Origin: Eledone cirrhosa
Taxonomy: Eukaryota
Length of the DNA stretch: 64,000 nt
Assembly: GCA_964016885.1 (NCBI GenBank)
Contig: OZ024745.1
Location: forward strand, 63,054,001 to 63,118,000
Direction: 5' to 3'
The position numbers were made by a program, and so were the translations under genes. The notes below the pieces were generated by a model that worked only from the letters and a program-made list of their open reading frames with translations, searched no databases and was not told the origin of the DNA. Of this stretch, positions 22,780 through 58,679 are shown in pieces (the stretch's first letter is position 1; each line of letters starts with the position of its first letter).

Positions 22780-23071
<292 letters not shown>

Positions 23072-28149: not shown

Positions 28150-31054
28150 GAATGTTACATTCCGTGAACTTTTCCCTGGGCAAAATTATTCGAAGAGACA
28201 TGACCTTATTGCCAGAGTGTTCAGACTGAAACTGGCTAAACTCATGGCTTTAATCAAAAAGGTCAGGTAGTTGGAGCTGTAAAATGTGGCATTTTCACCG
28301 TCGAATGGCAAACATGAGGGCTGCCACATGCTCACATTTTGATTTGGTTAGCTGATAAAATCAATTCATTCAAATGCTATAGACAGCTTAATTTCGGCTG
28401 AAATCCCTAACCCAGCAACTGACCAGGAATTACATGACATCGCCAAAGGTAAAATGATTCATGGTCCGTGTGCGTCGGGTCCTAATGAGCATCACACGTG
28501 TCTCAAAGGGGATGGGGTCGTGCAGTAAGGAATACCCCCAAAAATGTGCTGACCAGACTCAGACTGGTGGCGACGGGTACCCCCTGTGCAGGCGGAGACG
28601 GCCCGAGAACGGTGGCTTCACCACAACAGTAAAAGGAGGTCAAGTCGACAATAGATGGGTGGTCCCTTACTGCCCGCTTCTGTTGAAGACGTTCAACGCC
28701 CACATCAACGTTGAGTTTTGCAACTCGTCAAGTCGATAAAATACATATGCAAATATGTAAATAAGGGCTCTGATGCCGCAATGTTCACATTTCAAGCTGA
28801 AAATAACAGGGACGAGGTCACAGAATACCTGGTGGGGCGGTACATCTGTAGCAATGAAGCTTTTTGGCGCCTATTTGGTTTACCCTACACCAACGTCACC
28901 CCGCCATCGTACAGCTTGCGGTACATTTGGAAAATGGGCAAAGGGTTTACTTTACGGACCAAACCGCCGCCAAGTAGGCCGCCGATCCAAAAGAGACGAC
29001 TCTGACAGGTTTCTTCAAACTTTGCCAGTTCGATACATTTGCGCAAACAATTTTGTACTCCCAGGTTCCATCCTACTTTATATGGTCGAAAAACACTTGG
29101 GTGCGAAGAAAGTCAGGTCAGGCTGCTGAAAGACATCCTGTGTAAAATTTGACAGCTGTCTTGGAAGGGTTTACATTGTGCCCCCAAGTCAGCATGAGTG
29201 CTATCATCTCCGCCTTCTCCTGCATGAAGTTGTAGGCCGACAAAGTTTTCAGGACCTCAAAACTGTTGATGGAGAAATATGTGATACGTACAGGGAAGCC
29301 TGCTTTAAGCGTAGTCTTTTGGAAGATGATTCGCAATGGGATTCCACTTTAGCAGAGGGTGCTTTGTTGAAATCGCCTAAAGGTCTACGGGAACTCTTTG
29401 CTATTTGGCTTCAAAAGTGTGAATTGGGTGATCCCATATCTTTATGGTCAAGTACAGAGACTTCATGTCTGAGGACTTCCTGCGCCTGGCTCATCTGCAG
29501 TATACTTCAGTGGAAGTTGGTTACAGCGACATTATCTACAACAGGGCAATCATTGATATCGCGGACGTCCTCCTCGACATGGGTGGGAGTGAGTTGGCGA
29601 CGTATGGCTTGCCGTCAACCGTCAGAGAGGAAGCTAACACGTTGGCCCCGGATTTGTTGCGGGAAACAGCATATGACATCGAATCTCTTTCCCAATACTT
29701 AGAGGAAAATGAGCCCAAACTTCTGTTGAACCAAAGGTTGGCCTATTTAACTATCATTGACGCGGTTCAAAATCAGACTGGGAGTATTAACTTTCTCGAT
29801 GCTCCTGGGGGTACCGGAAAAACTTATCTAACGAAATTGATTCTCGCTAAGATTCTTCAGGAGAAAAAAATTTCGTTGGCCGTTGCATCGTCCGGGATCG
29901 CTGCTACTTTGCTGCTGCGAGGCAGGACAGCACATTCCACCCTTAAACTCCCCTTGGATTTAGTAAAAACTGAGACACCAACATGCAATATCAGCAAGAG
30001 TTCACACGAAGCTCTGGGTCTCAAAAAATGTTGCCTCATTGTTTGGGATGAGTGCACAATGGCACACAAGGGTGCCCTTGAGGCATTGGACGTTTCCCTG
30101 AAAGACATTAGGGATTCTACGGCTCCTATGGGTGGCGTAACCCTTCTGCTATCAGGGGATTTTTGGCAAACGCTGCCTGTCATTCCCAATCGGACAAGAG
30201 CTGATGAAGTGCGTGCCTGTCTTAAGACGTCCATGTTGTGGCTGCAGGTGAAGAGTTTGTACCTGAGCACAAATATGCGTGCTCATTTGCATGGTGACAA
30301 CATGTCTGCAGCATTTGCTCAGAATATTTTAGCACTTGGTGAGAGCAAGGTCCCTGCGGATGACAAGGGTGGCATAGCAATCGACTCCCTGTGCAACATT
30401 GTGAGCAGCCCCTCTGAATTTTGGGAAGCATTTTTTTCCTAATGTCTCATCTAACTTTAAAAACCTCGATTGGCTCAGCGAAAGAGCCATCCTTGCTCTG
30501 AAAATACCATGGATAATTTTATTAACGAGCAGCTGATTGAGAAAATTCCCAGTAAAGAATACATTTTCAAATCTATCGACCGGACGTCAGACTCCGACGA
30601 TATGGTTAATTATCCGGTTGAGTTATTAAACTCCCTTGAGCCCCCAGGGCTCCCACCTCACATTCTTAAGCTTAGGGTTGGCTGTCCCATTATGCTAATA
30701 AGGAAATTGCGTTCACCAAAGCAGTGCAACGGTACCACTTGATTGAGGCCACCATTGTAACGGGGTGCGGGAGAGGGGAGAATGTTTTCATTCCAAGGAT
30801 GAACCTTAGCCCCTGGCGTCAGATATCCCGTTCGATTTCCGGCGATCCCAATTTCCGGTGAGACCATGTTTTGCCATGTCCATTTACAAGTCACAAGAGC
30901 AAACATTGTCGTGGCGGGCATCCATTTGGGGGAGCCATGCTTCTCCCATGGCCAACTTTATGTTTCCTGTTCCAGCGTAGGGAGCAGGAATGGACATTTT
31001 GCTTACACACCTCAAGGGGTGACACGCAATATCGTCTACAAAGAGATGCTATAG
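28150..31054 (+). pseudogene. Helitron Rep/Pif1 helicase, with multiple frameshifts and stops
   Basis: ORF pieces 28034-28270, 28461-28739, 28718-29005, 29178-29702, 29444-30442, 30470-30742 and 30866-31054 are colinear parts of RepHel. Confidence 0.92.
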
Positions 31055-32611: not shown

Positions 32612-34060
32612 GAATAAAATGAAGAATTAGAAATAGAGGCCAGGACTATCCATCATCAGTGGTCTACTAGCTATCATAGGTATTTCTTCGCATTACAGAT
32701 CATGTACCTCCGGCTAGGACAGTACAATAGCTAAAATAAGTTATTGGGATAAAAAGAATTGGGTGGAGAATGAGAGACAGGTAAACAAACACGAATGGTG
32801 AAGCAACGTAAAGAGAGGAAAAATGAGAAAACGATTCAATGATTCATTTTGAATATAAGAACTTGCGAATATTGACGAGAAGGCAAAGACACATCTTGGC
32901 CGTGCGAGTGTGAGCGAGGAAAGAATTTCGTACGGTGTGGGACGATGGAGTGAGAGAGAGGGTGAGTTGCATAGAGAGAGTGAGTGAAAGTGTGAGGAAG
33001 AGGCTAGCCGAGAGAGGGTGAATAGCAGAGGGGGTGAGTGAAAGTAAGAGGGAGAAGGAGAGAGAAAGGGGAGAGAGAAAGGGGATAGCAGTAAGGGAAG
33101 AGAAAAAGACATGTCACAGCAAGGGGGGAAGTATAAATGGATGAAAAATGGCGAGCTGTCTTATATAATAACATGAAGACTGAGAAATAGAAGCTAGGAC
33201 TATCCATCATCAGTGGTCTTCTAGCTATCATAGGTATTTCTTCGCATTACAGACCATATAGCTCCGGCTAGGGCAATACAATGGCTAAAATAAGTTATTG
33301 GGATAAAAAGAATTGGGTGGAAGAAGAGAGACAGGTAAAGGAACACGAATGGTGAGGCAACGTAAAGTGAGGAACTCCACCCAATTCTTTTTATCCCAAT
33401 AACTTATTTTAGCTATTGTATTGCCCTAGCCGGAGCTATATGGTCTGTAATGCGAAGAAATACCTATGATGGCTAGAAGACCACTGATGATGGATAGTCC
33501 TAGCTTCTATTTCTAAGTCTTCATGTTATTATATAAGACCGCTCGCCATTTTTCATCCATTTATGCTTCCCCCTTTGCTGTGACATGTCTTTTTCTCTTC
33601 CTTTACTGCTATCCCCTTTCTCTCTCCCCTTTCTCTCTCCTTCTCCCTCTTACTTTCACTCAACCCCTCTGCTATTCACCCTCACTCGACTAGCCTCTTC
33701 ATCACACTTTCACTCACTCTCTCTATGCTACTCACCCTCTTTCTCACTCCATCGTCCCACACCGTACGAAATTCTTTCCTCGCTCACACTCGCACGGCCG
33801 AGATGTGTCTTTTGTCTTCTCGTCAATATTCGCAAGTTCTTATGTTCAAAATGAATCATTGACTTGATTTTCTCATTTTTTCCTCTCTTTACGTTGCTTC
33901 ACCATTCGTGTTTATTTACCTGTCTCTCTTTCTCCACCCAACTCTTTTTATCCCAATAACTTATTTTAGCTATTGTATTGTCCTAGCCGGAGGTATATGC
34001 GAAGAAATACCTATAATGATGGATAGTCCTGGCTTCTATTTCTAATTTTTCATTTTATTA
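32612..34060. mobile_element. Inverted tandem module of a ~555 bp monomer (left arm 32612-33372, right arm 33375-34060)
   Basis: ggactatccatcatcagtgg at 32643 and 33197; right arm is the reverse complement; ends in (TA)n. Confidence 0.85.
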
Positions 34061-34290
34061 TATATATATAATTAAGTTAAAAATGTACATCCACATATGT
34101 ATACTGAAATACTAGTATGCATATGAATACACACACGTGTACATATGTAGATGTACCGAGTTTTTCACTGGTCACTTTACTGTGAGTGTCCAGCTATTCT
34201 GTATGTAAACACGCAGACAAACCGGTTTTTAGAGTCATACTGGTTTTTGAGGAAACACCTTTCCTCTATTCTCCAGAAAGCCAGACAAGG

Positions 34291-37200
34291 AATATTGGAC
34301 TAGTTTCGATGTTGTTACATCTCATCAGCAATATTTACCTATCTTCCGGCCTTTCTAGAGAATCGTAAAAGCACATATCGTTATATGCTTTTTCTATGAA
34401 AATTAGTAGTGGGCAGACTAACTTGCATAGAGCGTGAGTACGTACCGGTTCAGCGGAGACGATAAAAACAAATAACGAAACGAAATCAAACCTCGTTTCG
34501 TTTGTAACTCACTCTTGTATGACTGACGCTTAAACAATTAAGTTAAAAATGTACATCCACATATGTATACTGAAATACTAGTATGCATATGAATACACAC
34601 ACGTGTACATATGTAGATGTACCGAGTTTTTCACTGGTCACTTTACTGTGAGTGTCCAGCTATTCTGTATGTAAACACACAGACAAACCGGTTTTTAGAG
34701 TCATACTGGTTTTTGAGGAAACACCTTTCCTCTATTCTCCAGAAAGCCAGACAAGGAATATTGGACTAGTTTCGATGTTGTTACATCTCATCAGCAACAT
34801 TTACCTATCTTCCGGCCTTTCTAGAGAATCGTAAAAGCACATATCGTTATATGCTTTTTCTATGAAAATTAGTAGTGGGCAGACTAACCTGCATAGAGCG
34901 TAAGTACGTACCGGTTCAGCGGAGACGATAAAAACAAATAACGAAACGAAATCAAACCTCGTTTCGTTTGTAACTCACTCTTGTATGACTGACGCTTAAA
35001 CAATTAAGTTAAAAATGTACATCCACATATGTATACTGAAATACTAGTATGCATATGAATACACACACGTGTACATATGTAGATGTACCGAGTTTTTCAC
35101 TGGTCACTTTACTGTGAGTGTCCAGCTATTCTGTATGTAAACACACAGACAAACCGGTTTTTAGAGTCATACTGGCTTTTGAGGAAACACCTTTCCTCTA
35201 TTCTTCAGAAAGCCAGACAAGAAATATTGGACTAGTTTCGATGTTGTTACATCTCATCAGCAACATTTACCTATCTTCCGGCCTTTCTAGAGAATCGTAA
35301 AAGCACATATCGTTATATGCTTTTTCTATGAAAATTAGTAGTGGGCAGACTAACCTGCATAGAGCGTAAGTACGTACCGGTTCAGCGGAGACGATAAAAA
35401 CAAATAAGGAAACGAAATTAAACCTCGTTTCGTTTGTAACTCACTTTTGTATGACTGACGCTTAAACAATTAAGTTAAAAATGTACATCCACATATGTAT
35501 ACTGAAATACTAGTATGCATATGAATACACACACGTGTACATATGTAGATGTACCGAGTTTTTCACTGGTCACTTTACTGTGAGTGTCCAGCTATTCTGT
35601 ATGTAAACACACAGACAAACCGGTTTTTAGAGTCATACTGGCTTTTGAGGAAACACCTTTCCTCTATTCTACAGAAAGCCAGACAAGGAATATTCGACTA
35701 GTTTCGATGTCGTTACATCTCATCAGCAACATTTACCTATCTTCCGGCCTTTCTAGAGAATCGTAAAAGCACATATCGTTATATGCTTTTTCTATGAAAA
35801 TTAGTAGTGGGCAGACTAACCTGCATAGAGCGTAAGTATGTACCGGTTCAGCGGAGACGATAAAAACAAATAAGGAAACGAAATTAAACCTCGTTTCGTT
35901 TGTAACTCACTTTTGTATGACTGACGCTTAAACAATTAAGTTAAAAATGTACATCCACATATGTATACTGAAATACTAGTATGCATATGAATACACACAC
36001 GTGTACATATGTAGATGTACCGAGTTTTTCACTGGTCACTTTACTGTGAGTGTCCAGCTATTCTGTATGTAAACACACAGACAAACCGGTTTTTAGAGTC
36101 ATACTGGTTTTTGAGGAAACACCTTTCCTCTATTCTCCAGAAAGCCAGACAAGGAATATTGGACTAGTTTCGATGTTGTTACATCTCATCAGCAACATTT
36201 ACCTATCTTCCGGCCTTTCTAGAGAATCGTAAAAGCACATATCGTTATATGCTTTTTCTATGAAAATTAGTAGTGGGCAGACTAACCTGCATAGAGCGTA
36301 AGTACGTACCGGTTCAGCGGAGACGATAAAAACAAATAACGAAACGAAATCAAACCTCGTTTCGTTTGTAACTCACTCTTGTATGACTGACGCTTAAACA
36401 ATTAAGTTAAAAATGTACATCCACATATGTATACTGAAATACTAGTATGCATATGAATACACACACGTGTACATATGTAGATGTACCGAGTTTTTCACTG
36501 GTCACTTTACTGTGAGTGTCCAGCTATTCTGTATGTAAACACACAGACAAACCGGTTTTTAGAGTCATACTGGCTTTTGAGGAAACACCTTTCCTCTATT
36601 CTCCAGAAAGCCAGACAAGGAATATTGGACTAGTTTCGATGTTGTTACATCTCATCAGCAACATTTACCTATCTTCCGGCCTTTCTAGAGAATCGTAAAA
36701 GCACATATCGTTATATGCTTTTTCTATGAAAATTAGTAGTGGGCAGACTAACCTGCATAGAGCGTAAGTACGTACCGGTTCAGCGGAGACGATAAAAACA
36801 AATAAGGAAACGAAATTAAACCTCGTTTCGTTTGTAACTCACTTTTGTATGACTGACGCTTAAACAATTAAGTTAAAAATGTACATCCACATATGTATAC
36901 TGAAATACTAGTATGCATATGAATACACACACGTGTACATATGTAGATGTACCGAGTTTTTCACTGGTCACTTTACTGTGAGTGTCCAGCTATTCTGTAT
37001 GTAAACACACAGACAAACCGGTTTTTAGAGTCATACTGGTTTTTGAGGAAACACCTTTCCTCTATTCTGCAGAAAGCCAGACAAGGAATATTGGACTAGT
37101 TTCGATGTTGTTACATCTCATCAGCAACATTTACCTATCTTCCCGCCTTTCTAGAGAATCGTAAAAGCACATATCGTTATATGCTTTTTCTATGAAAATT

Positions 37201-38995
37201 AGTAGTGGGCAGACTAACCTGCATAGAGCGTAAGTACGTACCGGTTCAGCGGAGACGATAAAAACAAATAACGAAACGAAATTAAACCTCGCTTCGTTTG
37301 TAACTCACTTTTGTATGACTGACGCTTAAACAATTAAGTTAAAAATGTACATCCACATATGTATACTGAAATACTAGTATGCATATGAATACACACACGT
37401 GTACATATGTAGATGTACCGAGTTTTTCACTGGTCACTTTACTGTGAGTGTCCAGCTATTCTGTATGTAAACACGCAGACAAACCGGTTTTTAGAGTCAT
37501 ACTGGTTTTTGAGGAAACACCTTTCCTCTATTCTCCAGAAAGCCAGACAAGGAATATTGGACTAGTTTCGATGTTGTTACATCTCATCAGCAATATTTAC
37601 CTATCTTCCGGCCTTTCTAGAGAATCGTAAAAGCACATATCGTTATATGCTTTTTCTATGAAAATTAGTAGTGGGCAGACTAACTTGCATAGAGCGTGAG
37701 TACGTACCGGTTCAGCGGAGACGATAAAAACAAATAAGGAAACGAAATTAAACCTCGTTTCGTTTGTAACTCACTTTTGTATGACTGACGCTTAAACAAT
37801 TAAGTTAAAAATGTACATCCACATATGTATACTGAAATACTAGTATGCATATGAATACACACACGTGTACATATGTAGATGTACCGAGTTTTTCACTGGT
37901 CACTTTACTGTGAGTGTCCAGCTATTCTGTATGTAAACACGCAGACAAACCGGTTTTTAGAGTCATACTGGTTTTTGAGGAAACACCTTTCCTCTATTCT
38001 CCAGAAAGCCAGACAAGGAATATTGGACTAGTTTCGATGTTGTTACATCTCATCAGCAATATTTACCTATCTTCCGGCCTTTCTAGAGAATCGTAAAAGC
38101 ACATATCGTTATATGCTTTTTCTATGAAAATTAGTAGTGTGCAGACTAACTTGCATAGAGCGTGAGTACGTACCGGTTCAGCGGAGACGATAAAAACAAA
38201 TAACGAAACGAAATCAAACCTCGTTTCGTTTGTAACTCACTCTTGTATGACTGACGCTTAAACAATTAAGTTAAAAATGTACATCCACATATGTATACTG
38301 AAATACTAGTATGCATATGAATACACACACGTGTACATATGTAGATGTACCGAGTTTTTCACTGGTCACTTTACTGTGAGTGTCCAGCTATTCTGTATGT
38401 AAACACACAGACAAACCGGTTTTTAGAGTCATACTGGTTTTTGAGGAAACACCTTTCCTCTATTCTCCAGAAAGCCAGACAAGGAATATTGGACTAGTTT
38501 CGATGTTGTTACATCTCATCAGCAACATTTACCTATCTTCCGGCCTTTCTAGAGAATCGTAAAAGCACATATCGTTATATGCTTTTTCTATGAAAATTAG
38601 TAGTGGGCAGACTAACCTGCATAGAGCGTAAGTACGTACCGGTTAAGCGGAGACGATAAAAACAAATAACGAAACGAAATTAAACCTCGCTTCGTTTGTA
38701 ACTCACTTTTGTATGACTGACGCTTAAACAATTAAGTTAAAAATGTACATCCACATATGTATACTGAAATACTAGTATGCATATGAATACACACACGTGT
38801 ACATATGTAGATGTACCGAGTTTTTCACTGGTCACTTTACTGTGAGTGTCCAGCTATTCTGTATGTAAACACGCAGACAAACCGGTTTTTAGAGTCATAC
38901 TGGTTTTTGAGGAAACACCTTTCCTCTATTCTCCAGAAAGCCAGACAAGGAATATTGGACTAGTTTCGATGTTGTTACATCTCATCAGCAATATT
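34291..38995 (-). ncRNA. Eleven family B hammerheads (34291-34335, then every +466)
   Basis: Reverse complement AAT(A/G)TTG-CTGATGA-GATGT AACA ACATC-GAAA-CTAG-TC-CAATATT. Confidence 0.92.
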
Positions 38996-39754
38996 TACCT
39001 ATCTTCCGGCCTTTCTAGAGAATCGTAAAAGCACATATCGTTATATGCTTTTTCTATGAAAATTAGTAGTGGGCAGACTAACTTGCATAGAGCGTGAGTA
39101 CGTACCGGTTCAGCGGAGACGATAAAAACAAATAACGAAACGAAATCAAACCTCGTTTCGTTTGTAACTCACTCTTGTATGACTGACGCTTAAACAATTA
39201 AGTTAAAAATGTACATCCACATATGTATACTGAAATACTAGTATGCATATGAATACACACACGTGTACATATGTAGATGTACCGAGTTTTTCACTGGTCA
39301 TTTTACTGTGAGTGTCCAGCTATTCTGTATGTAAACACACAGACAAACCGGTTTTTAGAGTCATACTGGTTTTTGAGGAAACACCTTTCCTCTATTCTCC
39401 AGAAAGCCAGCGTGTTTACATACAGAATAGCTGGACACTCACAGTAAAGTGACCAGTGAAAAACTCGGTACATCTACATATGTACACGTGTGTGTATTCA
39501 TATGCATACTAGTATTTCAGTATACATATGTGGATGTACATTTTTAACTTAATTGTTTAAGCGTCAGTCATACAAAAGTGAGTTACAAACGAAGCGAGGT
39601 TTAATTTCGTTTCGTTATTTGTTTTTATCGTCTCCGCTGAACCGGTACATACTTACGCTCTATGCAGGTTAGTCTGCCCACTACTAATATTCATAGAAAA
39701 AGCATATAACGATATGTGCTTTTACGATTCTCTAGAAAGGCCGGAAGATAGGTA

Positions 39755-41197
39755 AATGTTGCTGATGAGATGTAACAACATCGAAACTAGTCCAATATTC
39801 CTTGTCTGGCTTTCTGGAGAATAGAGGAAAGGTGTTTCCTCAAAAACCAGTATGACTCTAAAAACCGGTTTGTCTGTGTGTTTACATACAGAATAGCTGG
39901 ACACTCACAGTAAAGTGACCAGTGAAAAACTCGGTACATCTACATATGTACACATGTGTGTATTCATATGCATACTAGTATTTCAGTATACATATGTGGA
40001 TGTACATTTTTAACTTAATTGTTTAAGCGTCAGTCATACAAGAGTGAGTTACAAACGAAACGAGGTTTGATTTCGTTTCGTTATTTGTTTTTATCGTCTC
40101 CGCTGAACCGGTACGTACTCACGCTCTATGCAAGTTAGTCTGCCCACTACTAATTTTCATAGAAAAAGCATATAACGATATGTGCTTTTACGATTCTCTA
40201 GAAAGGCCGGAAGATAGGTAAATATTGCTGATGAGATGTAACAACATCGAAACTAGTCCAATATTCCTTGTCTGGCTTTCTGGAGAATAGAGGAAAGGTG
40301 TTTCCTCAAAAACCAGTATGACTCTAAAAACCGGTTTGTCTGCGTGTTTACATACAGAATAGCTGGACACTCACAGTAAAGTGACCAGTGAAAAACTCGG
40401 TACATCTACATATGTACACGTGTGTGTATTCATATGCATACTAGTATTTCAGTATACATATGTGGATGTACATTTTTAACTTAATTGTTTAAGCGTCAGT
40501 CATACAAAAGTGAGTTACAAACGAAGCGAGGTTTAATTTCGTTTCGTTATTTGTTTTTATCGTCTCCGCTCAACCGGTACGTACTTACGCTCTATGCAGG
40601 TTAGTCTGCCCACTACTAATTTTCATAGAAAAAGCATATAACGATATGTGCTTTTACGATTCTCTAGAAAGGCCGGAAGATAGGTAAATGTTGCTGATGA
40701 GATGTAACAACATCGAAACTAGTCCAATATTCCTTGTCTGGCTTTCTGGAGAATAGAGGAAAGGTGTTTCCTCAAAAACCAGTATGACTCTAAAAACCGG
40801 TTTGTCTGTGTGTTTACATACAGAATAGCTGGACACTCACAGTAAAGTGACCAGTGAAAAACTCGGTACATCTACATATGTACACGTGTGTGTATTCATA
40901 TGCATACTAGTATTTCAGTATACATATGTGGATGTACATTTTTAACTTAATTGTTTAAGCGTCAGTCATACAAGAGTGAGTTACAAACGAAACGAGGTTT
41001 GATTTCGTTTCGTTATTTGTTTTTATCGTCTCCGCTGAACCGGTACGTACTCACGCTCTATGCAAGTTAGTCTGCCCACTACTAATTTTCATAGAAAAAG
41101 CATATAACGATATGTGCTTTTACGATTCTCTAGAAAGGCCGGAAGATAGGTAAATATTGCTGATGAGATGTAACAACATCGAAACTAGTCCAATATT
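39755..41197 (+). ncRNA. Four family B hammerheads (39755-39799, 40221, 40687, 41153)
   Basis: aatgttg-ctgatga-gatgtaacaacatc-gaaa-ctag-tc-caatatt read directly. Confidence 0.92.
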
Positions 41198-41517
41198 CCT
41201 TGTCTGGCTTTCTGGAGAATAGAGGAAAGGTGTTTCCTCAAAAACCAGTATGACTCTAAAAACCGGTTTGTCTGCGTGTTTACATACAGAATAGCTGGAC
41301 ACTCACAGTAAAGTGACCAGTGAAAAACTCGGTACATCTACATATGTACACGTGTGTGTATTCATATGCATACTAGTATTTCAGTATACATATGTGGATG
41401 TACATTTTTAACTTAATTGTTTAAGCGTCAGTCATACAAAAGTGAGTTACAAACGAAGCGAGGTTTAATTTCGTTTCGTTATTTGTTTTTATATATATAT
41501 ATATATATATAAAATAG

Positions 41518-42590: not shown

Positions 42591-43404
42591 TTGATCAGAA
42601 GAACATCTATTTTATTAATATTTATATATATATATATATATATATAAGTAAAAATTAGCGAGAATCGAATTTCAGCCTATGAAATAACGAAAAAACACTT
42701 TCGAATTGTGAGGCAAGCGCTCAATAATTCAAAAGAATTACCTTACAACTTACGTTAAAGGCCAAACACACTGAGATGGTGGTTAAACTAATTATCCACA
42801 CAGCGAAGACTCGATCTCCTATTTCGGGTCAAACAGATATACAGATATAAAAATATATGAAAGCATAAATGTTTTATACTCACCGGACCCCTGGAATGAT
42901 GGTAAAGTCCAGTGTTGGGATTTCTGCGGCTCCATAAGTCATTTACTGTCCACTTACATAAAGGATGTTAAGTTTCTCGTATCCTGACTGAACTAGGAGT
43001 GCGCGTTATCAACGGGATTCAGTTCTAAAGACCACATAGATGTGTCTGTAACTGACCCCACGTGGGGTTCAGCAAGGAGGCAACACCTAAATTAGGCGAA
43101 TGAATTCATCTGTGTATAATATTGCGAAAATGCAAAATATCACAAATCGAATGAAGCTCTCGACAGAGTGGTTAAATATAACAAACCTATTCGGCAGTTA
43201 ATAGAATAGACCAAAACCAGTCAATAAAATTAACTGGCCAATAGCTAGACTATATATATATATATATATGTGTAGATAAATCTACCAAAATTTACGGTAG
43301 TGTCCAATCCGTATGAAGAACTCAATGTAATCCGGATATCATGAAAAGAGAAGATGTATTCAAAAACTATTTTCGGTGAAAAATAAACGGAAAACAGAGT
43401 CAAG

Positions 43405-45321
43405 ATAAATTAATAAAATAATGAATAAACAAAGAAACAGTTCCTTATATTAAAAAAATGTCATCATTTTACGATCGTTTCTAGGATATATATGTGTTAG
43501 AGTTGGTATGCATATTCTATAGATCTATGTACAATATTTATAGAAACTATCAACAACCATCAACAACCAAAAACATAAAACAAAATATAAGTGCCTATAA
43601 TGCATATAAATGTAAAAAACCCATGAGTATACCACCAGTACATCAAACTAACCATAATATCTCCTCAGATACAGGGTTCACGAAAGGTTGTAACTGTAGA
43701 AACAAGGCAAACTGTCCATTAAAAGGAAATTGCCTTGTTAATAACATAGTATATAAATGTAAAGTTAACACTAAGGACTCAATTTATTCATATATAGGAG
43801 CTACCTCTAACAAATTTAAGGTAATATTTAATACCCACAAACATAGTTTTAAAAATGCCGCACTAGCTAATACAACATCTCTAGCTGAAATAATTAATAG
43901 TTATAGAAAGAGGAATATAGATTATGACCTGACCTGGAGTGTGCTCAAAAGGGCCACCCCTTATCAAAATAGTAGATATGAATGTAGATTATGTTCCCAA
44001 GAACTTTTTGAAATAATGAAATCTAAGGATATCCTATTAAATAAGCGACAGGAATTAATAATATCGTGTAATCATAAACTGAGAAAAACCTTTAAATATT
44101 ATAAACCTAATTAATATACACTTTAGAAATTAATATATAAACTGTTTTTAATTTAGTTAACCTATAATTAATATTCTACTACTGATGAACTACATAATTT
44201 TACTTTCCTTCTTACAACTATCATTTCCTAAAACTGATACCATTAAGTAAACATATATAATGCTTTAACTTCAGGTTATGACTCTATGTTCCTTGAAATC
44301 TATATATATTTATTATTTCTCACTAATAAATGTAATCCCCCCCCAATAATTATATGTATATGTAAGTGTGTATGTGTGTGTGTATATATATATATGTATG
44401 TATATATGCGTGTATATATATATATATATGTGTGTATATGTGTGTGTGTATGTGTATATATATATATATATGTATATATATATGTATTATTTTTATATTC
44501 TTTTAATTTAACCCTCATCTTTAACAGCACCTTTCAAATGCATCTAACTCTTATTTATCATATCTATATGTATTAGTATAATTTTATCAATATAAATATA
44601 CCCATCAATTAAATTAATTTATATTCTTTTCATAGATGTTTTTTTTTTTTTTTTTTTCACTAACACACTTATCGTAAAACTTTAGTCTCCTTAGATATTT
44701 GCATTGGCATTACTATTTTATAACAGTAACTGCTTGTATACCTTTTACTGACCTGACCTATTTTCACCCCTAAAATAAGCTTCAATTACTACTATTTTAC
44801 CATTTGGCCAATTATTAACTTTCTATTGCTTAATTCTAAACCTCTTACCAAACAGACAGAATATATTAGATCTTTGTTGGTTTTATTCAATGAACAAATA
44901 AAATTATTTCTGAGGTCAGCATACGACCTATTTTCTTCCCTAAAATAATCCTTCATTCATAATATTCTTTTCCCTCCATAACTGAAATCTACCTTCCTCT
45001 ACCCATAATTTAAGGTTCTTCACTACTATATTACTATCTTGACCCTCACTATCTCTCTATTGGTCAATTCAAAACCTGTTCCCAAACAGACCTATTGTAT
45101 TGAATCTTTGTTTTTTTCAATAAACAAATATCATTATTTCTGAAGACAGCATATATATGTGTAGGTATGTATATTCCCTCTGATAGTTTGTATAAATATT
45201 GTACATAGATCTATGGAATATGCATACCAACTCTAACACATATATATCCTAGAAACGATCGTAAAATGATGAATTTTTTTAATATAAGGAACTGTTTCTT
45301 TGTTTATTCATTATTTTATTA

Positions 45322-45328
<7 letters not shown>
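43405..45328 (+). mobile_element. 5'-truncated PLE with an inverted copy of its 3' end (43405-43552 = reverse complement of 45181-45328)
   Basis: GIY-YIG ORF, long 3' UTR, terminal inversion, ends in (TA)n. Confidence 0.85.
43553..44114 (+). pseudogene. C-terminal GIY-YIG endonuclease of a PLE (CxCx5C type)
   Basis: GCNCRNKANCPLKGNCL...IVYKCKV...YIGAT.NKFK..FNTHKHSF...CRLC..E...LLNKRQE...CNH; RT missing. Confidence 0.88.
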
Positions 45329-45424: not shown

Positions 45425-45916
45425 AACGGCGATGAATTTGATTTGCGAGGTTTTTGATATGAAATCGTGTGTCGAAACAAATATTGTTATACTTGGGGAG
45501 GGTCATATTTGTGTAATATTGCCAGAATTAATAACAGAACACACTCACTGTTTGGTTGGAATTCGCTTTTCGCTTCTGTGTCTTTTATATCGGTAATCTA
45601 ATTTATTCGGTCCTCGATGTTGCCATTGACTGACCAACGGTCAAAAATACAGATACAATATAGACACAAACACATATATATAGTTTATCAAAGTTCTTTC
45701 GTTGCACATCTGCAACATCGTCAGTGGTGCTATTATTTCCTCCCGTTGCATTGTATTTTCTACGCCGTTGGTCAGCCAATGGCAACATTGAGGACGGAAT
45801 AAATTAGATTACCGATATAAAAGACACAGAAGCGAAAAGCGAAAACCACCCAAACAGTGAGTGTGTTCTGTCATTAATTCTGGCAATATTACACAAATAT
45901 GACCATCCCCAAGTAT

Positions 45917-45921
<5 letters not shown>
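45425..45921. mobile_element. Family H tail-out inverted module with hammerhead-like motif (45687-45728, minus)
   Basis: 45767-45921 is the inverse of 45481-45640; CTGACGA-T-GTTGCA GATG TGCAAC-GAAA-GAAC-TT. Confidence 0.75.
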
Positions 45922-45981
<60 letters not shown>

Positions 45982-45985
<4 letters not shown>

Positions 45986-46033
45986 TATGTATGTATACGT
46001 ACATACATATATGTATACAGACGTACAGTAGCA

Positions 46034-46089
<56 letters not shown>

Positions 46090-46444
46090 TACATACAGGT
46101 ACACATACATATATGCACGCATCAGTTTAGTGGACGCTTATTATAACGCCGCTTTGTTCGTTTGTAAACAAACTGAACAGCCTGAATTTATGCCATACGG
46201 TGTTAAGGCAACCACGTCACCTTTTTGTTCAACTATCTGGCAGATGGGTAAACGGTGCTGATAATAGCTAACAAGCTTGAAACTAGTACATCGTTCCTGT
46301 GTCAGTGTTGAACAAAAAGGTGACGTGGTTGCCTTAACACCGTATGGCATAAATTCAGGCTGTTCAGTTTGTTTACAAACGAACAAAGCGGCGTTATAAT
46401 AAGCGTCCGCTAAACTGATGCGTGCATATATGTATGTGTACCTG

Positions 46445-46514
<70 letters not shown>

Positions 46515-46948
46515 TGCTACTGTACGTCTGTATACATATATGTATGTACGTATACATACATACTTACATTTAAGTAAGTGCCATACTAAAAGTGAGAAAT
46601 GAAATTTCGTTTTCATTTTTTTTTTTAACTTATCGTTTTCGGTATGCCTGACCGTTTAACTCACTCAATATGCAAATTAGGCTGCTCAGCCGTTAATTTT
46701 CATAAGGAAAGTATATACTTTCGAACGTTCAACTATCTGGCAGATGGGTAAACGGTGCTGATGATAGCTAACAAGCTTGAAACTAGTACATCGTTCCTGT
46801 GTCAGTGTTGAACAAAAAGGTGACGTGGTTGCTTTAACACCGTATGGCATAAATTCAGGCTGTTCAGTTTGTTTACAAACGAACAAAGCGGCGTTATAAT
46901 AAGCGTCCGCTAAACTGATGCGTGCATATATGTATGTGTACCTGTATG

Positions 46949-47022
<74 letters not shown>

Positions 47023-47140
47023 TGCTACTGTACGTCTGTATACATATATGTATGTACGTATACATACATACTTACATTTAAGTAAGTGCCATACTAAGAG
47101 TGAGAAATGAAATTTCGTTTTCATTTTTTTTTTCAACTTA
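45982..47140. mobile_element. Family A inverted/tandem module; hammerheads at 46253-46293 (G8>A) and 46753-46793 (intact), plus strand
   Basis: CGGTG-CTGATGA-TAGCT AACA AGCTT-GAAA-CTAG-TA-CATCG; inversion at GTTCAAC microhomology ~46227-46233; (TA)n at both ends. Confidence 0.9.
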
Positions 47141-47997
47141 TATATATATTCACATAGTTGACTTTTTTTTTAGTATGAAATAAATATTATTTACCACGTT
47201 CCTGTGTACGCAGAATACAGATATAGTGTATGAACACCAAACGATTTATAATGCGAATGGGGGAATTAAAAATGATATATTACATTGTTGCTTTGTACTC
47301 GTGAACACAGTATCCATGTCAATATTTATATAATTTCGGAGGCAGATTTAATCGACTCTGCTTAACTTTCAAATACTTGACAGAGATACAAACATAAATT
47401 TGGCTGAGAATGTAACTGGGCCTAACGGTATAATGCAAGATATTTTGTCCATCGCCCTACGAATTTTATCATTCACCTCCCGAAAATGTGTTACAATATA
47501 GTCGATAATAAACAGCAGGACAGCAGCCTAAGATTTGGATAAGCAGAGTGTTTTCATCGACCGGATTACTTAGCTGGTATTTTGTTTTATCAGTGCCAGA
47601 CCGGTGGAGTACAATATTAAACGTAAAGTGCCCTAAGTAAATAACGCTATACAGTTTATGTCTCACATCACAAGTCACAAAATAACATCACAATAATAAA
47701 TAAGAACATGATTTATAAAACAGCGTTCTACATGTAAATAAATTATGCTTGATATAATGCTACTTTAATTTACTAAGGCCTGAAACACTAAAAGTATAGC
47801 AGCAAATGTAATACAATAAATATATGACATGAGAATAAAACAAGGCAATTAAATAAAGCACCAAGCAGAGCTGTCAAAGTAAGATATGATACAAGTCAAA
47901 ACATGTTTCAGGTCAAAATACACTGAGATGAACGAGCATGCCACTCTCTCTTTTTACTGTCTCTCTCTCTCTTTCCCTCTCTCCCTCACTATATACC

Positions 47998-48549: not shown

Positions 48550-48584
<35 letters not shown>

Positions 48585-48588
<4 letters not shown>

Positions 48589-49260
48589 TAAGTATGTATA
48601 CGTACATACATATATGTATACAGACGTACAGTAGTATGTATATACATACATACATGCACACATATATGTATGTACGTATGGGTTTACCGAACATTTATTA
48701 TAATGGTCCGTTTGTTTGTAAACAAACATCCCGAACTATTAGCCGTACAGTGTTCGGCAACCATCGTTGCCCTTTTGTTCTACACTGAAAAAGGAGCGAT
48801 GAACTATTTTCTAGCTTATTAGCTGTCATCAGCACCGTATACCTTCCTGTCAGTCGATTAAACGTTTAAAAGTATATATTTTCCTTATGCATATTAACGG
48901 CTGAGCAGCCTAATTTGAATATTCAGTGAGTTAGTTGGCCGGGCGTACCGAAAACGATAAATGGAAAAAATGAAATTTTATTTCTCACACTTAGTACGGC
49001 TGATACTTAAATATAAGTATGTATACGTACATACATATATGTATACAGTCGTACAGCAGTATGTATATAGATACATACATGCACACATATATATATATGT
49101 ACGTATGGGTTTACCGAACATTTATTGTAATGCTCGGTTTGTTTGTAAACAAACAGCCCGAATCATTAGCCGTACAGTGTTCGGCAACCATCGTTTCCCT
49201 TTTCCCGACAAAGGAACGATGAACTAGTTTCTAGCTTATTAGCTGTCATCAGCACCGTAT
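48585..49260 (-). mobile_element. Family A variant, ~1.6 tandem units (420 bp period); hammerheads at 48797-48837 and 49217-49257
   Basis: CGGTG-CTGATGA-CAGCT AATA AGCTA-GAAA-CTAG-TT-CATCG on minus. Confidence 0.85.
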
Positions 49261-49952: not shown

Positions 49953-52001
49953 TAAATGTAAGTATGCATGTATACGTACATACATATATGTATACAGACG
50001 TACAGTAGCATGCACATATATATATATATACATACATATGCATACAGGTACACATACATATATGCACGTATCAGTTTAGCGGCGCTTATTATAACGTCGC
50101 TTTGTTCGTTTGTAAACAAACTGAACAGCCTGAATTTATGCCATACGGTGTTAAGGCAACCACGTCACCTTTTTGTTCAACACTGACACAGGAACGATGT
50201 ACTAGTTTCAAGCTTGTTAGCTATCATCAGCACCGTTTACCCATCTGCCAGATAGTTGAACGTTCGAAAGTATATACTTTCCTTATGAAAATTAACGGCT
50301 GAGCAGCCTAATTTGCATATTGAGTGAGTTAAATCGGTCAGGCATACCGAAAACGATAAATTGAAACAAAATGAAAACGAAATTTCATTTCTCACTCTTA
50401 GTATGGCACTTACTTAAATGTAAGTATGCATGTATACGTACATACATATATGTATACAGACGTACAGTAGCATGCACATATATATATATATATATATACA
50501 TATATACATACATATGCATACAGGTACACATACATATATGCACGTATCAGTTTAGCGGCGCTTATTATAACGTCGCTTTGTTCGTTTGTAAACAAACTGA
50601 ACAGCCTGAATTTATGCCATACGGTGTTAAGGCAACCACGTCACCTTTTTGTTCAACACTGACACAGGAACGATGTACTAGTTTCAAGCTTGTTAGCTAT
50701 CATCAGCACCGTTTACCCATCTGCCAGATAGTTGAACGTTCGAAAGTATATACTTTCCTTATGAAAATTAACGGCTGAGCAGCCTAATTTGCATATTGAG
50801 TGAGTTAAATCGGTCAGGCATACCGAAAACGATAAATTGAAACAAAATGAAAACGAAATTTCATTTCTCACTCTTAGTATGGCACTTACTTAAATGTAAG
50901 TATGCATGTATACGTACATACATATATGTATACAGACGTACAGTAGCATGCACATATATATATATATATACATATATGTATGTACGTATACATGCATACT
51001 TACATTTAAGTAAGTGCCATACTAAGAGTGAGAAATGAAATTTCGTTTTCATTTTGTTTCAATTTATCGTTTTCGGTATGCCTGACCGATTTAACTCACT
51101 CAATATGCAAATTAGGCTGCTCAGCCGTTAATTTTCATAAGGAAAGTATATACTTTCGAACGTTCAACTATCTGGCAGATGGGTAAACGGTGCTGATGAT
51201 AGCTAACAAGCTTGAAACTAGTACATCGTTCCTGTGTCAGTGTTGAACAAAAAGGTGACGTGGTTGCCTTAACACCGTATGGCATAAATTCAGGCTGCTA
51301 AGTTTGTTTTCAAACGAACAAAGCGACGTTATAATAAGCGCCGCTAAACTGATACGTGCATATATGTATGTGTACCTGCATGCATATGTATGTATATATG
51401 TATATATATATATATATGTGCATGCTACTGTACGTCTGTATACATATATGTATGTACGTATACATGCATACTTACATTTAAGTAAGTGCCATACTAAGAG
51501 TGAGAAATGAAATTTCGTTTTCATTTTGTTTCAATTTATCGTTTTCGGTATGCCTGACCGATTTAACTCAATATGCAAATTAGGCTGCTCAGCCGTTAAT
51601 TTTCATAAGGAAAGTATATACTTTCGAACGTTCAACTATCTGGCAGATGGGTAAACGGAGCTGATGATAGCTAACAAGCTTGAAACTAGTACATCGTTCC
51701 TGTGTCAGTGTTGAACAAAAAGGTGACGTGGTTGCCTTAACACCGTATGGCATAAATTCAGGCTGTTCAGTTTGTTTACAAACGAACAAAGCGACGTTAT
51801 AATAAGCGCCGCTAAACTGATACGTGCATATATGTATGTGTACCTGTATGCATATGTATGTATATATGTATATATATATATATATGTGCATGCTACTGTA
51901 CGTCTGTATACATATATGTATGTACGTATACATGCATACTTACATTTAAGTAAGTGCCATACTAAGAGTGAGAAATGAAATTTCGTTTTCATTTTGTTTC
52001 A

Positions 52002-52006
<5 letters not shown>
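49953..52006. mobile_element. Family A inverted tandem array (~470 bp unit); hammerheads at 50195 and 50671 (minus), 51188 and 51656 (plus)
   Basis: About 2.2 units in each direction; inversion within an internal (TA)n at ~50965; (TA)n at both ends. Confidence 0.92.
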
Positions 52007-52073
<67 letters not shown>

Positions 52074-52096
52074 ATATATATATGTGTGTGTGTGTA

Positions 52097-54750
52097 AAAG
52101 GTAAACAGAAATAACAACACAATAGGTACAGTATATATTAGGTTAACGCTTGATATAGCAGGAAGAGGGTCTTAACGTTTCGGACGCTAGTCCTTCATCA
52201 TAAGAAAGAATGAGAAATAAAATAGATTAAGGGGACGGGCGGGTTGGAATTGGAAAACAGGTCTTTAGATAAAAATAACAGGTCCATTCATGTTGACATC
52301 TCTTGCAAAAGTGTTGGTGCTGGCGCTTTTTGTATGATTGGTTTTTTAGAAAAGTGGATGATGGAGCGCGTCTACCTGAAATAGAAAAAAAAAACGTTTT
52401 GTAAAAAGTGCTATACTTGAGCACGTGCGTAAGCATGTGTTTGTGTGTGCGTGTGTGTGTGTGTGTCTCTGTGTGTGTGTGTGTGTGTGTATGTGCGTGA
52501 GTGTGTGTGTATGTGTGTGTTATTATAGGAATGGGTTTCAAAATTGTCGTCCTGGCTACAGAGTCGACGAAGACGGAGGAATTGGGAATAGGCTCTGGAG
52601 TATTTGGTGTGGGTTGGATGGGAGGAGATGAAGTCGAGATAAAATTGGGTGTCTGTTGGTTTAATGATGATGGAAGTAGAGAGGGTGTGGTGAGAGTGAT
52701 TAATAGATTGAGAGATATCTAGAAAAACGACAAAGAATCGAATACGGAGGCGGTGAAATTGAGAGCAGGATGGAAAGATTGGACAAAAGAAAGAAAACAG
52801 TCGAGCTGTTCTCGTCGTGATAGAGAGGTGGCGCCGATACAGTCGTCTATGTAACGACCGTATAGCTCAGGAGTCGGTCCAGAGTACTGGGAGAAGATCT
52901 GGGCTTCGACGTAGCCAACAAACAAGTTGGCATAGTTTGGACCCATTCTGGTTCCCATCGCTACCCCAGAGACCTGCTGGTAAAATTCACCCGAAAAAGA
53001 AAATCCATTAAGGGTGAGAACAAGCTCAGCCAGGGCGTAAATCTAAACAATGCTGGAGAGCGCGGAGGCCGTCATCATGAGTGATGACGGTATAGAGAGA
53101 AGTGATGTCCAGGGTAAAGAGAAGGCGGGAGGGACCAGGAGGGAAGGAGAAAGAGTTGAAGAGTATAAGGGCATGATTTGTATCGTGGATGTGGGAGGGG
53201 AGATTGCCAACCAACGGGGCGAGGATGGTGTCTAAATGTTCAGAAATTATCTCGGTGGGGCAGTTGCACGCAGAAACAATAGGACGGCCAGGATTATTTT
53301 GTTTGTGTATTTTGGTGAGGAAGTATATGGTGGGTGTGCGAGGGGTGCGTAGAATAAGGTTGGTGGCTGTTGGGGTGAGAGGAGGATATGAGCTTGTGGA
53401 TGGTGGAGGACACGAGTTGTTGGTAGCCAGGAGTGGGGTCAGAGGATAAAGGGCGGTAAAAAGGGTATTGTGAAGCTGGCGGAGAGCCTCAGCCCTATAG
53501 AGGTCAGTGCTCCAAACCACCACAGCACCATCTTTGTCAGCGGGTTTGATGACATTGTCATCGCGACGCCGAAGGTTGACAAGAGCGGAGAGCTCAGTTC
53601 ACGTGATGTTAGAGCGACGAGAATGCTGGTGGAAACAGAACCGATTCACAGTAAGCCGACAAGTATCGGCAAAGGAGTCGAAGGTGCTGAACTGGCCAGA
53701 GCTCGGCGTCCAATGTGATTGCCGGCGACTGAGACGAGTGAAGTCATCCGTCTGTGTCGATGATGGCGTGTCGTGAATAAAAACTTTCAGCTTTAATCGA
53801 CGGAAGAACCCTTCAATCTCGGCACGTGTGCGGAACTCGTCGCAGGTAGATGTGGTTGGTATAAAACGCAACCCACGGGCGAGGAGGGAGCGCTCTGTTT
53901 CGGAGAGTGGTAAGTCCTGGGGTATGGGGACTACAGTGAAAGAACTTGAAAGAGTGAAATAGGCGGAGGCGGAGGTGCCAAGGTGGTTGGGCAAAGCGTA
54001 TGCAGATTCAGTGGTAGGTGACGGGATAGAAGGGGTTAGGGATGGAGGTGATATGAGTATGGGTGGTGACGGCAGGCAGGGAGCGGAGAGAGTCGAGTTA
54101 TGATTCTTTATGGAAGTGAGGAAATTGAAAAGGAGGCGATTGAGGTAAAGGATGAATTGGATAAGGGATTGGTCGAGGAAAGGGTAGCGAGTGGAGGAGA
54201 GATAGAGGTAGCCCTTGGGGAGATCTCGGTCGAGAGAACGGATTTGGGTGAGAGTTGCTCGAATGGTCGCCCGCATGAGCTGGCGAGAGGAGCAGGTAAG
54301 GATGGGCTCAGTAGTGGGAGCAGAGTAAGAGGTGGGGTGAAACTTGAGGCGGAAACCGCGGGGCATGAGGTGGTGGTGGAGACAGCGACTTAAAAATGTG
54401 ATGTGACTGTCGTATCGTGTTTTTTGGTGAAGATGAGGTTGGAGAATTGGATGCTTATGGGGGGGGGGGCTTTAGAGTATAATGGAGCTGGCGGAGAAAA
54501 GATGTGAGATTGCGCATATTGAAGTTACTAGGGTGGGAGTGAAAAATAGACGGATGAGAAGAAGAAGGTGGTGTAAGAAGATTGTAGTAGAGGAAAAGTG
54601 GTAGAGTCGTGGAAAGAAGCAAAGAAAATTTCAAAGATACGAAAGATTTGCTGGTGGAAGTTCAGGTGTACTCCGGGTTGGTAGCCAGTTTCGAGGTGAA
54701 AGTCCAATCAGAGAATCCAACAAATTTTCAGAAGTCCACGTAAGCGTTGA
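52097..54750 (-). mobile_element. Decayed Penelope-like element (Neptune-like RT) with 3' pseudo-LTR and minimal hammerhead (52170-52205, C3>A)
   Basis: YFLTKIHKQNNPGRPIVS, FTLDITSLYT, MGTRMGPNYANLF, GRYIDD, YSQFLRLRRLCS; endonuclease not seen; ends in (CA)n. Confidence 0.92.
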
Positions 54751-54864
54751 TATATATATATATATTCTTCGGCTCTGTTTAATTACATTGAGCTATACCT
54801 TTACTGTCATTTCTATAATATGAAGAGGGTGTTTAAATCCAACACGCTCTAGTATTTTAATTCT

Positions 54865-54919
<55 letters not shown>

Positions 54920-54921
<2 letters not shown>

Positions 54922-55012
54922 AACAGGGAAACAGAAATAACAACACAATCGGTACCGTATATGGAAGGTATATATTAGGTTAACGCTTGATATAGCCGGA
55001 AGATGGTCTTAG
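54920..55012 (-). mobile_element. Partial pseudo-LTR of the same PLE family, starting at the hammerhead cleavage position
   Basis: Homologous to 52100-52173; its minus-strand start is AAGACC, the sequence 3' of the GUU site. Confidence 0.75.
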
Positions 55013-55058
<46 letters not shown>

Positions 55059-56447: not shown

Positions 56448-56849
56448 ATTTGTTTTGCGAGGTTTTTGATATGAAATCGTGTGTTGAAACAAATATTGTT
56501 ATACTTGGGGAGGGTCATATTGTTGTAATAATATTGCCAGAATTAATAACAGAACACACTCACTGTTTGGTTGGTTTTCGCTTCTGTATCTTTTATATCA
56601 GTTAATTTATTCGGTCCTCAATGTTTACCATTGACTGACCAACGGTCAAAAAATACTGATATAATATAGACACAAACACATATATGTAAATAAGCAGATT
56701 AAATAAAGATGGCGTAGATATACAATACTACAGCAGGAACATAATAACACCACTGACGATGTTGCAGATGTGCAAAGAAAGAACTTTGTTAGACTATATA
56801 TATGTGTTTGTGTCTATATTATATCTGTATTTTTTTACCGTTGGTCAGT

Positions 56850-56855
<6 letters not shown>
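56448..56855. mobile_element. Second family H tail-out module; hammerhead-like motif at 56744-56791 (plus)
   Basis: Homologous to 45445-45765; inverted right arm; (TA)n at both ends. Confidence 0.75.
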
Positions 56856-56944
<89 letters not shown>

Positions 56945-57104: not shown

Positions 57105-57106
<2 letters not shown>

Positions 57107-58614
57107 GATGTATATATAATGTATTTTGCAATACACTTTATGCTTAATTAAAAGCATTTTGAAGACCGTAAGCTATTGTTTTAAAGTAGTGACAAATTCA
57201 CTTACTTTGATCTCAGCAAACAGGGGAGATAAGCCGACAAGTCTTGTTTCGCTTTGGTTGAAGCTTATCAAGGCCAACTACCCCTCCTGTCTACCGAGAT
57301 CACTGATGTTATATTCTTATAGAAATCTAGTAAATAATCAGGAGCTGATTATGCAGAGCGGTTGTTGGTCAGGCAGAAATTAAAAAATAGAATTGGAGCT
57401 CTGAAATAGCAATATATATATGGATGTATATATAATGTATTTTGCAATACACTTTATGCTTAATTAAAAGCATTTTGAAGACCGTAAGCTATTGTTTTAA
57501 AGTAGTGACAAATTCACTTACTTTGATCTCAGCAAACAGAGGAGATAAGCCGACAAGTCTTGTTTCGCTTTGGTTGAAGCTTATCAAGGCCAACTACCCC
57601 TCCTGTTTACCGAGATCACTGATGTTATATTCTTATAGAAATCTAGTAAATAATCAGGAGCTGATTATGCAGAGCGGTTGTTGGTCAGGCAGAAATTAAA
57701 AATTAGAATTGGAGCTCTGAAATAGCAATATATATATATATGGATGTATATATAATGTATTTTGCAATACCCTTTATGCTTAATTAAAAGCATTTTGAAG
57801 ACCGTAAGCTATTGTTTTAAAGTAGTGACAAATTCACTTACTTTGATCTCAGCAAACAGGGGAGATAAGCCGACAAGTCTTGTTTCGCTTTGGTTGAAGC
57901 TTATCAAGGCCAACTACCCCTCCTGTCTACCGAGATCACTGATGTTATATTCTTATAGAAATCTAGTAAATAATCAGGAGCTTCTAATTTTAATTTCTGC
58001 CTGACCAACAACCGCTCTGCATAATCAGCTCCTGATTATTTACTAGATTTCTATGAGAATATAACATCAGTGATCTCGGTAGACAGGAGGGGTAGTTGGC
58101 CTTGATAAGCTTCAACCAAAGCGAAACAAGACTTGTCGGCTTATCTCCCCTGTTTGCTGAGATCAAAGTAAGTAAATTTGTCACTACTTTAAAACAATAG
58201 CTTACGGTCTTCAAAATGCTTTTAATTAAGCATAAAGTGTATTGCAAAATACATTATATATACATCCATATATATATATTGCTATTTCAGAGCTCCAATT
58301 GTAATTTTTAATTTCTGCCTGACCAACAACCGCTGTGCATAATCAGCTCCTGATTATTTACTAGATTTCTATAAGAATATAACATCAATGATCTCGGTAG
58401 ACAGGAGGGGTAGTTGGCCTTGATAAGCTTCAACCAAAGCGAAACAAGACTTGTCGGCTTATCTCCCCTGTTTGCTGAGATCAAAGTAAGTGAATTTGTC
58501 ACTACTTTAAAACAATAGCTTACGGTCTTCAAAATGCTTTTAATTAAGCATAAAGTGTATTGCAAAATACATTATATATACATCCATATATATATTGCTA
58601 TTTCAGAGCTCCAA

Positions 58615-58620
<6 letters not shown>
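57105..58620. mobile_element. Family C: ~316-320 bp inverted tandem array (2.7 + 2 units, junction ~57982)
   Basis: Repeated 85 aa pseudo-ORF at 57126/57442/57762 (+) and 58247/58565 (-); microsatellite-bounded. Confidence 0.93.
57232..58459. ncRNA. Five family C hammerheads with U3-A8 core (minus: 57232, 57548, 57868; plus: 58098, 58416)
   Basis: GGCC-TTGATAA-GCTT CAACCA AAGC-GAAA-CAA GAC TTG-TC-GGCT. Confidence 0.8.

Positions 58621-58679
<59 letters not shown>

Follow-up and report, generated by a model that had tools for sequence, protein, structure and literature searches.

The window, a 64,000-nucleotide stretch from Eledone cirrhosa (contig OZ024745.1, positions 63,054,001 to 63,118,000 of the forward strand, assembly GCA_964016885.1), contains a satellite-like block at 34070-41492. 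An earlier note had given it these limits and a period of 466 bp, and both were borne out by Tandem Repeats Finder and BLAST. Tandem Repeats Finder divided the block into two arrays of period 466, one at 34070-39410 (11.5 copies) and the other at 39410-41492 (4.5 copies), and BLAST with one unit as query revealed that these are mutually inverted arms. The arms lie head to head with their ribozyme-sense strands directed outward, their 5' ends meeting at 39410/39412 and each 3' end adjoining a short (TA)n tract, as the earlier note had seen at both ends. The features of the block are as follows, with monomer positions numbered from the cleavage site:

34059-34069, no strand: left (TA)n target tract, present in the sequence
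34070-39410, minus strand: left arm of 11.5 monomers, ribozyme-sense on this strand, running from position 14 at its 5' end to site A (monomer position 228) at its 3' end
34291-34335, minus strand: type I hammerhead, given as an example; ten more follow on this strand in 466-bp steps, up to 38951-38995
39410-39412, no strand: head-to-head junction with one extra base and without microhomology
39412-41492, plus strand: right arm of 4.5 monomers, ribozyme-sense on this strand, running from position 86 at its 5' end to site B (position 302) at its 3' end
40725-41190, plus strand: one predicted self-cleaved monomer of 466 nt, CAAUAUU...CUAGUC (MFE -158.1 kcal/mol, z -8.4)
41153-41197, plus strand: type I hammerhead, given as an example, with cleavage predicted after 41190; three more lie on this strand at 39755, 40221 and 40687
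41419-41492, plus strand: 74-nt 'tail' spanning the interval from site A to site B, found at the right end and not the left, containing a 13-bp hairpin and homologous to the tail of a sister family
41493-41511, no strand: right (TA)n target tract, present in the sequence

The arm ending at A measures 5,341 bp and the arm ending at B 2,081 bp, and the block has different unique flanks on either side. The earlier note had described the units as nearly identical, which holds in so far as their identity is about 98% across the block, but the full units show a mean of 6.1 and a maximum of 10 differences, arranged in recurring haplotypes, and the block ranks fifth in heterogeneity among 28 arrays with at least three full units. 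The monomer has a GC content of about 0.37 (37%), and 34070-41492 contains no ORF of 120 aa or longer. An autonomous EN+ PLE was ruled out as the identity of the element, since it has no ORF for RT plus GIY-YIG.

Hammerhead cores number 15 in the block; the left arm has 11, all on the minus strand, and the right arm four, all on the plus strand. Their number agrees with the earlier note, which had placed 15 near-perfect hammerheads in a single array; however, the arms are inverted, so that no single transcript meets all 15 in sense, and only 14 cores are intact, the copy at 35689-35733 having the closing pair of stem I broken. The claim that every full unit carries AAUAUUG also failed, as the cores start with this motif in 6/15 cases and with AAUGUUG, which forms a G-U wobble, in 9/15. 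The core matches the Rfam model Hammerhead_HH9 (E=6.2e-9, 38.9 bits) under its gathering score of 52, at which level Rfam gives no match in the window; its stem I is extended and bulged. Stem III is a single A-U pair closing CUAG, in the palindromic ACUAGU that had been recognised as the dimer-favouring form. This reading was upheld by the build, which is that of the axolotl HHR_Amex1, described in the available text of PMC7229834 as cleaving well only as a dimer, and by predicted energies, in which closing stem III in the monomer costs 5.9 kcal/mol and the ACUAGU duplex gives -6.2. Stem III is thus supported, on modelled energies, as being of the dimer-dependent kind. The fold predicted for the cleaved monomer was matched in stability by 0/100 shuffles.

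The hammerhead motif is well above chance level; the 3.0-Gb assembly holds 9,294 exact ribozyme cores against 0 for a reversed control. The earlier view of a hammerhead-bearing RNA element rather than a plain satellite is supported. The unit is scattered over many contigs (644 candidates, of which 40 were scored), with subfamily identities from 87% to 100%. In at least 100 of the 401 cores read, an A-U pair of stem II has become U-A by a compensatory change, representing a single inherited event, and the cleavage triplet GUU replaces GUC in many copies. Loci L091-L095, L104 and L105 belong to a GUU-triplet subfamily, yet young homogeneous insertions still formed there. The 466-bp tandem joint was also found in contigs of another sample and in one contig labelled as another organism. 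At monomer positions 24-27 (window 40748-40751 and equivalents) there is a mutation hotspot, which exceeds background 15-fold in young arrays and 6.7-fold in older arrays; G25 has mutated 11 times (against a mean of 0.94 per site), each of the three other bases occurring among the replacements. RT errors where the enzyme pauses or meets a modified base could account for it, as could a hotspot at the DNA level.

Across the family, the 3' end of an arm lies at one of two fixed positions in the monomer, site A (about 225-234) or site B (about 297-302), and is followed by TA. The two sites are about 70 nt apart, distant from the cleavage site, and delimit a tail of about 57-74 nt. Exact end-plus-TA patterns number 468 for A, a count that is too low because site A is more spread than B, and 1,875 for B genome-wide, with 0 in the controls. 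We examined 110 loci, comprising the window, 35 chosen by similarity and 74 taken as early-listed B ends on contig C1, a series that omits 23 of the 100 B-end sites listed first (two of them, L034 and L099, being already in the set).

Among these loci there are 76 two-armed insertions: 64 A-B, 1 B-B, 0 A-A, 8 with other ends and 3 cut. The first set had 58 head-to-head rows (46 A-B, 1 B-B, 5 other, 6 cut), which became 47 A-B, 1 B-B, 5 other and 2 cut after dropping the segmental duplicate L079 and merging L099/L100 and L042/L102 (both A-B), and the second set added 21 rows (17 A-B, 3 other, 1 cut). A further 22 rows of the first set and 16 of the second are single-armed and unpaired, several with an uncounted A-arm stub. 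At the B-selected loci (74/110), which are unable to show A-A, the partner end is A in 41 cases and B in 0; the similarity-selected loci gave 23 A-B, 1 B-B and 0 A-A. The tail is one-sided in 64/65 insertions with both ends at A or B, and an inverted 5'-truncated copy lies directly at the 5' end in the window and in 75 further two-armed insertions. The only B-B insertion, L091 (contig C1:363100500-363110400), has a long arm with a period-2 higher-order repeat.

The target duplication at the window array consists of TA letters only, but at L090 (51 bp) and L096 (38 bp) the duplicated sequence includes letters other than TA, which indicates that the TA tract pre-existed the insertion. When junctions were inspected for microhomology, anchors failed at 18/37, and the remaining 19/37 are mostly short insertions. 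Arm 5' ends at positions 1-21 appeared in excess in the first set (14/128, expected 5.8, for an interval picked after seeing the data), whereas the new set gave 5/56 with 2.5 expected, which is no significant excess (p=0.11). Run-off at the cleaved 5' end was left unused as an explanation, as a stall at the basal stem would look identical. Ribozyme cleavage does not set the inserted ends. At L157:500-565 both arms stop at position 14 with a 65-nt GC-rich foreign piece between them, for which an Rfam search returned no credible match.

Within an insertion the two arms usually carry one haplotype. Their median divergence is 0.43%, compared with 3.3% to other insertions, the partner arm is nearest or tied in 52/66 rows (in which two insertions appear twice), and near-private alleles are common to both arms in 15 rows; arm-to-arm gene conversion could contribute to this similarity. 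Of 172 arms, 144 run through one cleavage site or more, and 69 through two, so the template was not a lone cleaved monomer. Identical units occur in 5/28 arrays with at least three full units, as predicted for rolling-circle copying of one monomer; such arrays have 3-11 identical units, some spanning both arms. Higher-order repeats with periods 2, 4 and 5 (L091, L099, L101, L054, L125) fit multimeric templates and later in-place duplication equally well.

In the window, the right arm is a strict alternation of two monomer haplotypes, S and R. The left arm has the same R-S pair at its outer end and, in its middle, additional mosaic haplotypes over five to six units, so that the arms agree over the outer two units and then differ. 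This mosaic of at least two monomer types means that a single monomer circle was not the sole template. Template jumps at the cleavage site are unsupported in the window, where the alleles at positions 432 and 85, flanking the cut, stay linked. After insertion, the long arm has probably undergone reshuffling or extension.

The satellite-like block is one insertion of a non-LTR retrozyme in two arms. The earlier note had proposed one insertion by multi-round reverse transcription, and what stands of this is the single event into a TA tract together with the passage of most arms across cleavage sites; the copying of a single 466-nt monomer does not fit the mosaic window, and it is at the 5/28 arrays with identical units, loci other than the window, that a single-monomer template fits. 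That account had overlooked the inversion, the fixed pair of 3' ends and the spread of the family through the genome.

We consider, with good confidence, that a non-autonomous retrozyme was inserted by PLE machinery, each strand of the TA site being primed at a different start and the cDNAs joined 5' to 5'. From the observed architecture, fixed ends, family size and shared arm haplotypes we infer the following course. A PLE RT/GIY-YIG protein would bind the tail hairpin of the retrozyme RNA, as a circle or an uncleaved multimer, and staggered cuts in both (TA)n strands would give rise to duplications of about 30-50 bp where these are readable. The 3'-OH of one strand would then start cDNA at internal site A and that of the other at B, with 1-3 nt of pairing to TA, and both cDNAs would traverse successive units, stop at scattered places and join 5' to 5'. 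The outcome would be a palindrome of two arms with the tail at one end only. The hammerhead would make unit-length RNA and circles, and would not define the inserted ends. The window template would have included at least two monomer types, as a dimer or mixed multimer, and we lean slightly towards a circle rather than a linear multimer.

These features agree with what is described for PLEs, of which an inverted 5'-truncated copy and a one-sided tail are hallmarks in the available parts of Craig et al. and PMC3846280. According to the accessible text of PMC11167929, PLE protein in vitro cuts and extends both strands of AT-rich DNA and starts at two internal RNA sites bounding the tail, a dimer being predicted and hammerhead cleavage unneeded. 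Running counter to the parallel, the retrozyme tail has about 57-74 nt against the 30-40 bp published for PLEs (Craig et al., in the part available), and the start site in vitro was, in the same text of PMC11167929, the same on both strands. Our reading is also weakened by the B-B insertion, by the choice of 74/110 loci for their B end, by the divergence of the window arms beyond their outer two units, by the possible share of gene conversion in arm similarity, by the higher-order repeats and by the lack of sequence kinship with the one autonomous PLE family tested.

A more specific version can be offered tentatively, and we think it somewhat less probable than its opposite. In it, one PLE dimer would clamp the tail hairpin of a single circle, its subunits would start at A and B on opposite strands, and both would roll round with strand displacement; the circle would be heterodimeric (932 nt) in the window, and animal retrozymes in general would bear the A/B footprint.

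It is unlikely that the palindromes arose by single priming and cDNA fold-back, or by twin priming, an L1-style mechanism, with an endonuclease resolving a hairpin intermediate to leave the tail-less end, in place of a second start site. Under twin priming the second end should be random and not at site A, and fold-back on a B-arm cDNA cannot yield an A arm longer than the B arm, as is seen in the window, L031, L060, L075 and L145, although a few junctions do lie in palindromes (L071, L143, L147). In the portions of the literature available, Craig et al. explain the tail by resolution through the endonuclease and PMC3846280 proposes self-priming, but both tail ends have been mapped as RT starts (PMC11167929).

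Local satellite growth, in which a PLE terminal repeat or single monomer would have been inserted once and then expanded by unequal exchange with the hammerheads as passengers, is discussed in the available text of Li et al. 2026 (10.64898/2026.07.22.740005), and as a full account we judge it slightly less likely still. The higher-order repeats of long arms, and the derived alleles shared by the mosaic middle units of the window, would be expected of it, but it leaves the A-B palindromes unexplained, and it is opposed by thousands of insertions at scattered sites that share one pair of ends, by the arrays of identical units, some of which extend across both arms, and by the compensatory stem II change. 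As a contributor adding length to long arrays, local growth has a chance not far short of even. An assembly artefact from fold-back reads or a collapsed repeat is very improbable, for although inverted repeats are hard to assemble and the window array is read here from the assembly, the unique flanks differ on each side, unequal sequence-defined ends recur at 64 loci, and raw reads from another sample have 193 loose ends exactly at site A, 34070.

As far as sequence can be used to judge, the block conforms to the non-LTR retrozymes of metazoans, as these are described in the available text of PMC7229834 and 10.64898/2026.07.22.740005. In common with them it consists of low-GC (37%) monomers that are non-coding, arranged in tandem and each equipped with a type I hammerhead, and it has a weak stem III with a palindromic tetraloop (as in HHR_Amex1), a highly self-paired monomer (predicted here) and dispersed copies. 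Long target duplications, where visible, may be a further likeness. The monomer of 466 nt exceeds the 170-400 nt first reported for metazoan retrozymes, and lies within the 51-972 bp range of Li et al. On the other hand, the element resembles EN+ PLEs (Hydra clade, PMC8557442; Anolis Poseidon PAc, PMC11167929; both as far as available) in the inverted 5'-truncated copy, the one-sided tail, the two internal starts, the AT-rich or (TA)n target, and a type I hammerhead away from the inserted end. Unlike EN+ PLEs, it has no RT or endonuclease ORF, it forms multimers of one short unit with a longer tail, and its hammerhead is full with an extended stem I, whereas that of EN+ PLEs is minimal. Non-autonomous Chlamys PLEs such as MRC1 are likewise non-autonomous passengers, often in multicopy head-to-tail insertions, but their 3' ends are similar to those of their autonomous partners, and canonical hammerheads are absent from most Chlamys (PMC8557442, same portion).

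PLEs have been named as candidate retrozyme helpers in the available text of PMC7229834 and PMC7761336, the latter stating that these repeats have no helper-identifying motif, and Li et al. 2026 argue for a PLE link from co-occurrence and terminal-repeat homology, in the part of that work available. Two-armed head-to-head insertions with fixed A/B ends, seen here, are unmentioned in the retrozyme text examined: the words 'tail', 'palindrom' and 'head-to' are absent from that of 10.64898/2026.07.22.740005, on which its supplements may bear, and the accessible part of PMC8490949 has nothing on a two-armed architecture. We found no report of an A/B footprint in retrozymes in the literature searched, which was mostly without subscription papers, and have thus not found described elsewhere the PLE signature of an inverted copy plus a one-sided tail in these elements.

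The enzyme that mobilises animal retrozymes is an open question, and the insertion structure described here carries a PLE footprint at thousands of young loci, locating two start sites to within a few bases. The near-strict one-A-one-B rule constrains the PLE mechanism to a different start site per target strand, and the retrozyme offers a short protein-free RNA substrate for testing that mechanism. If the A/B footprint were general, genomes by themselves would suffice for recognising RT start sites and helper families.

The same pattern recurs in other elements of this genome. A sister hammerhead repeat family of about 468 bp, with its own hammerhead variant, has copies in the window at 45976-47141, 48583-49258, 49953-52007 and 1-439, those at 45976-47141 and 49953-52007 being A-B palindromes. 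Its ends lie at positions 256 and 315, homologous to sites A/B, and there are 885 exact B-end matches in the genome; among 30 B-selected loci, the partner is A in 11 (one doubtful) and B in 0, with 19 undecided within 1.5 kb. In addition, a young autonomous Hydra-type PLE is present at window 43272-45325 and at L118-L123, with TA targets, intact frames of up to 834 codons and the motifs RWR, DKT and CxCX5C, as in the (TA)n-targeting Hydra clade (PMC8557442, available text). It forms A-B palindromes between two end sites of its own, which bound a tail of about 135 nt, this arrangement being found in 5/5 copies with both ends visible among the 18 loci examined. The Hydra-type PLE has no sequence in common with the retrozyme monomer or tail (296/300 shuffles scored as well), and a scan of it found no hammerhead, although Hydra elements are said to carry one in the same text of PMC8557442; it is therefore treated as a parallel case rather than as a proven helper. 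Among autonomous PLEs, of which one family was tested, none with a monomer-like terminal repeat was found.

A broken PLE at window 52090-55015 on the minus strand has the RT motif DKDGAVVVW, terminal repeats that finish in (AC)n and a minimal hammerhead-like motif, with a related motif at 22864. The PLE remnant at about 52090-54750 was rejected as helper since it ends in (AC)n and not TA, and a Pfam search with three PLE fragments named none of them. A third head-to-head tandem repeat (316-319 bp) lies between TA tracts at window 57105-58621, its hammerhead-like cores being non-canonical only. Further palindromic TA-flanked non-coding elements are found at window 32700-34060, 45430-45920 and 56450-56860, the last two containing a different hammerhead-like core (CUGACGA...GAAA). 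Finally, window 29432-30442 contains a PIF1 helicase fragment (Pfam E=8.4e-59), which is probably a piece of a Helitron.
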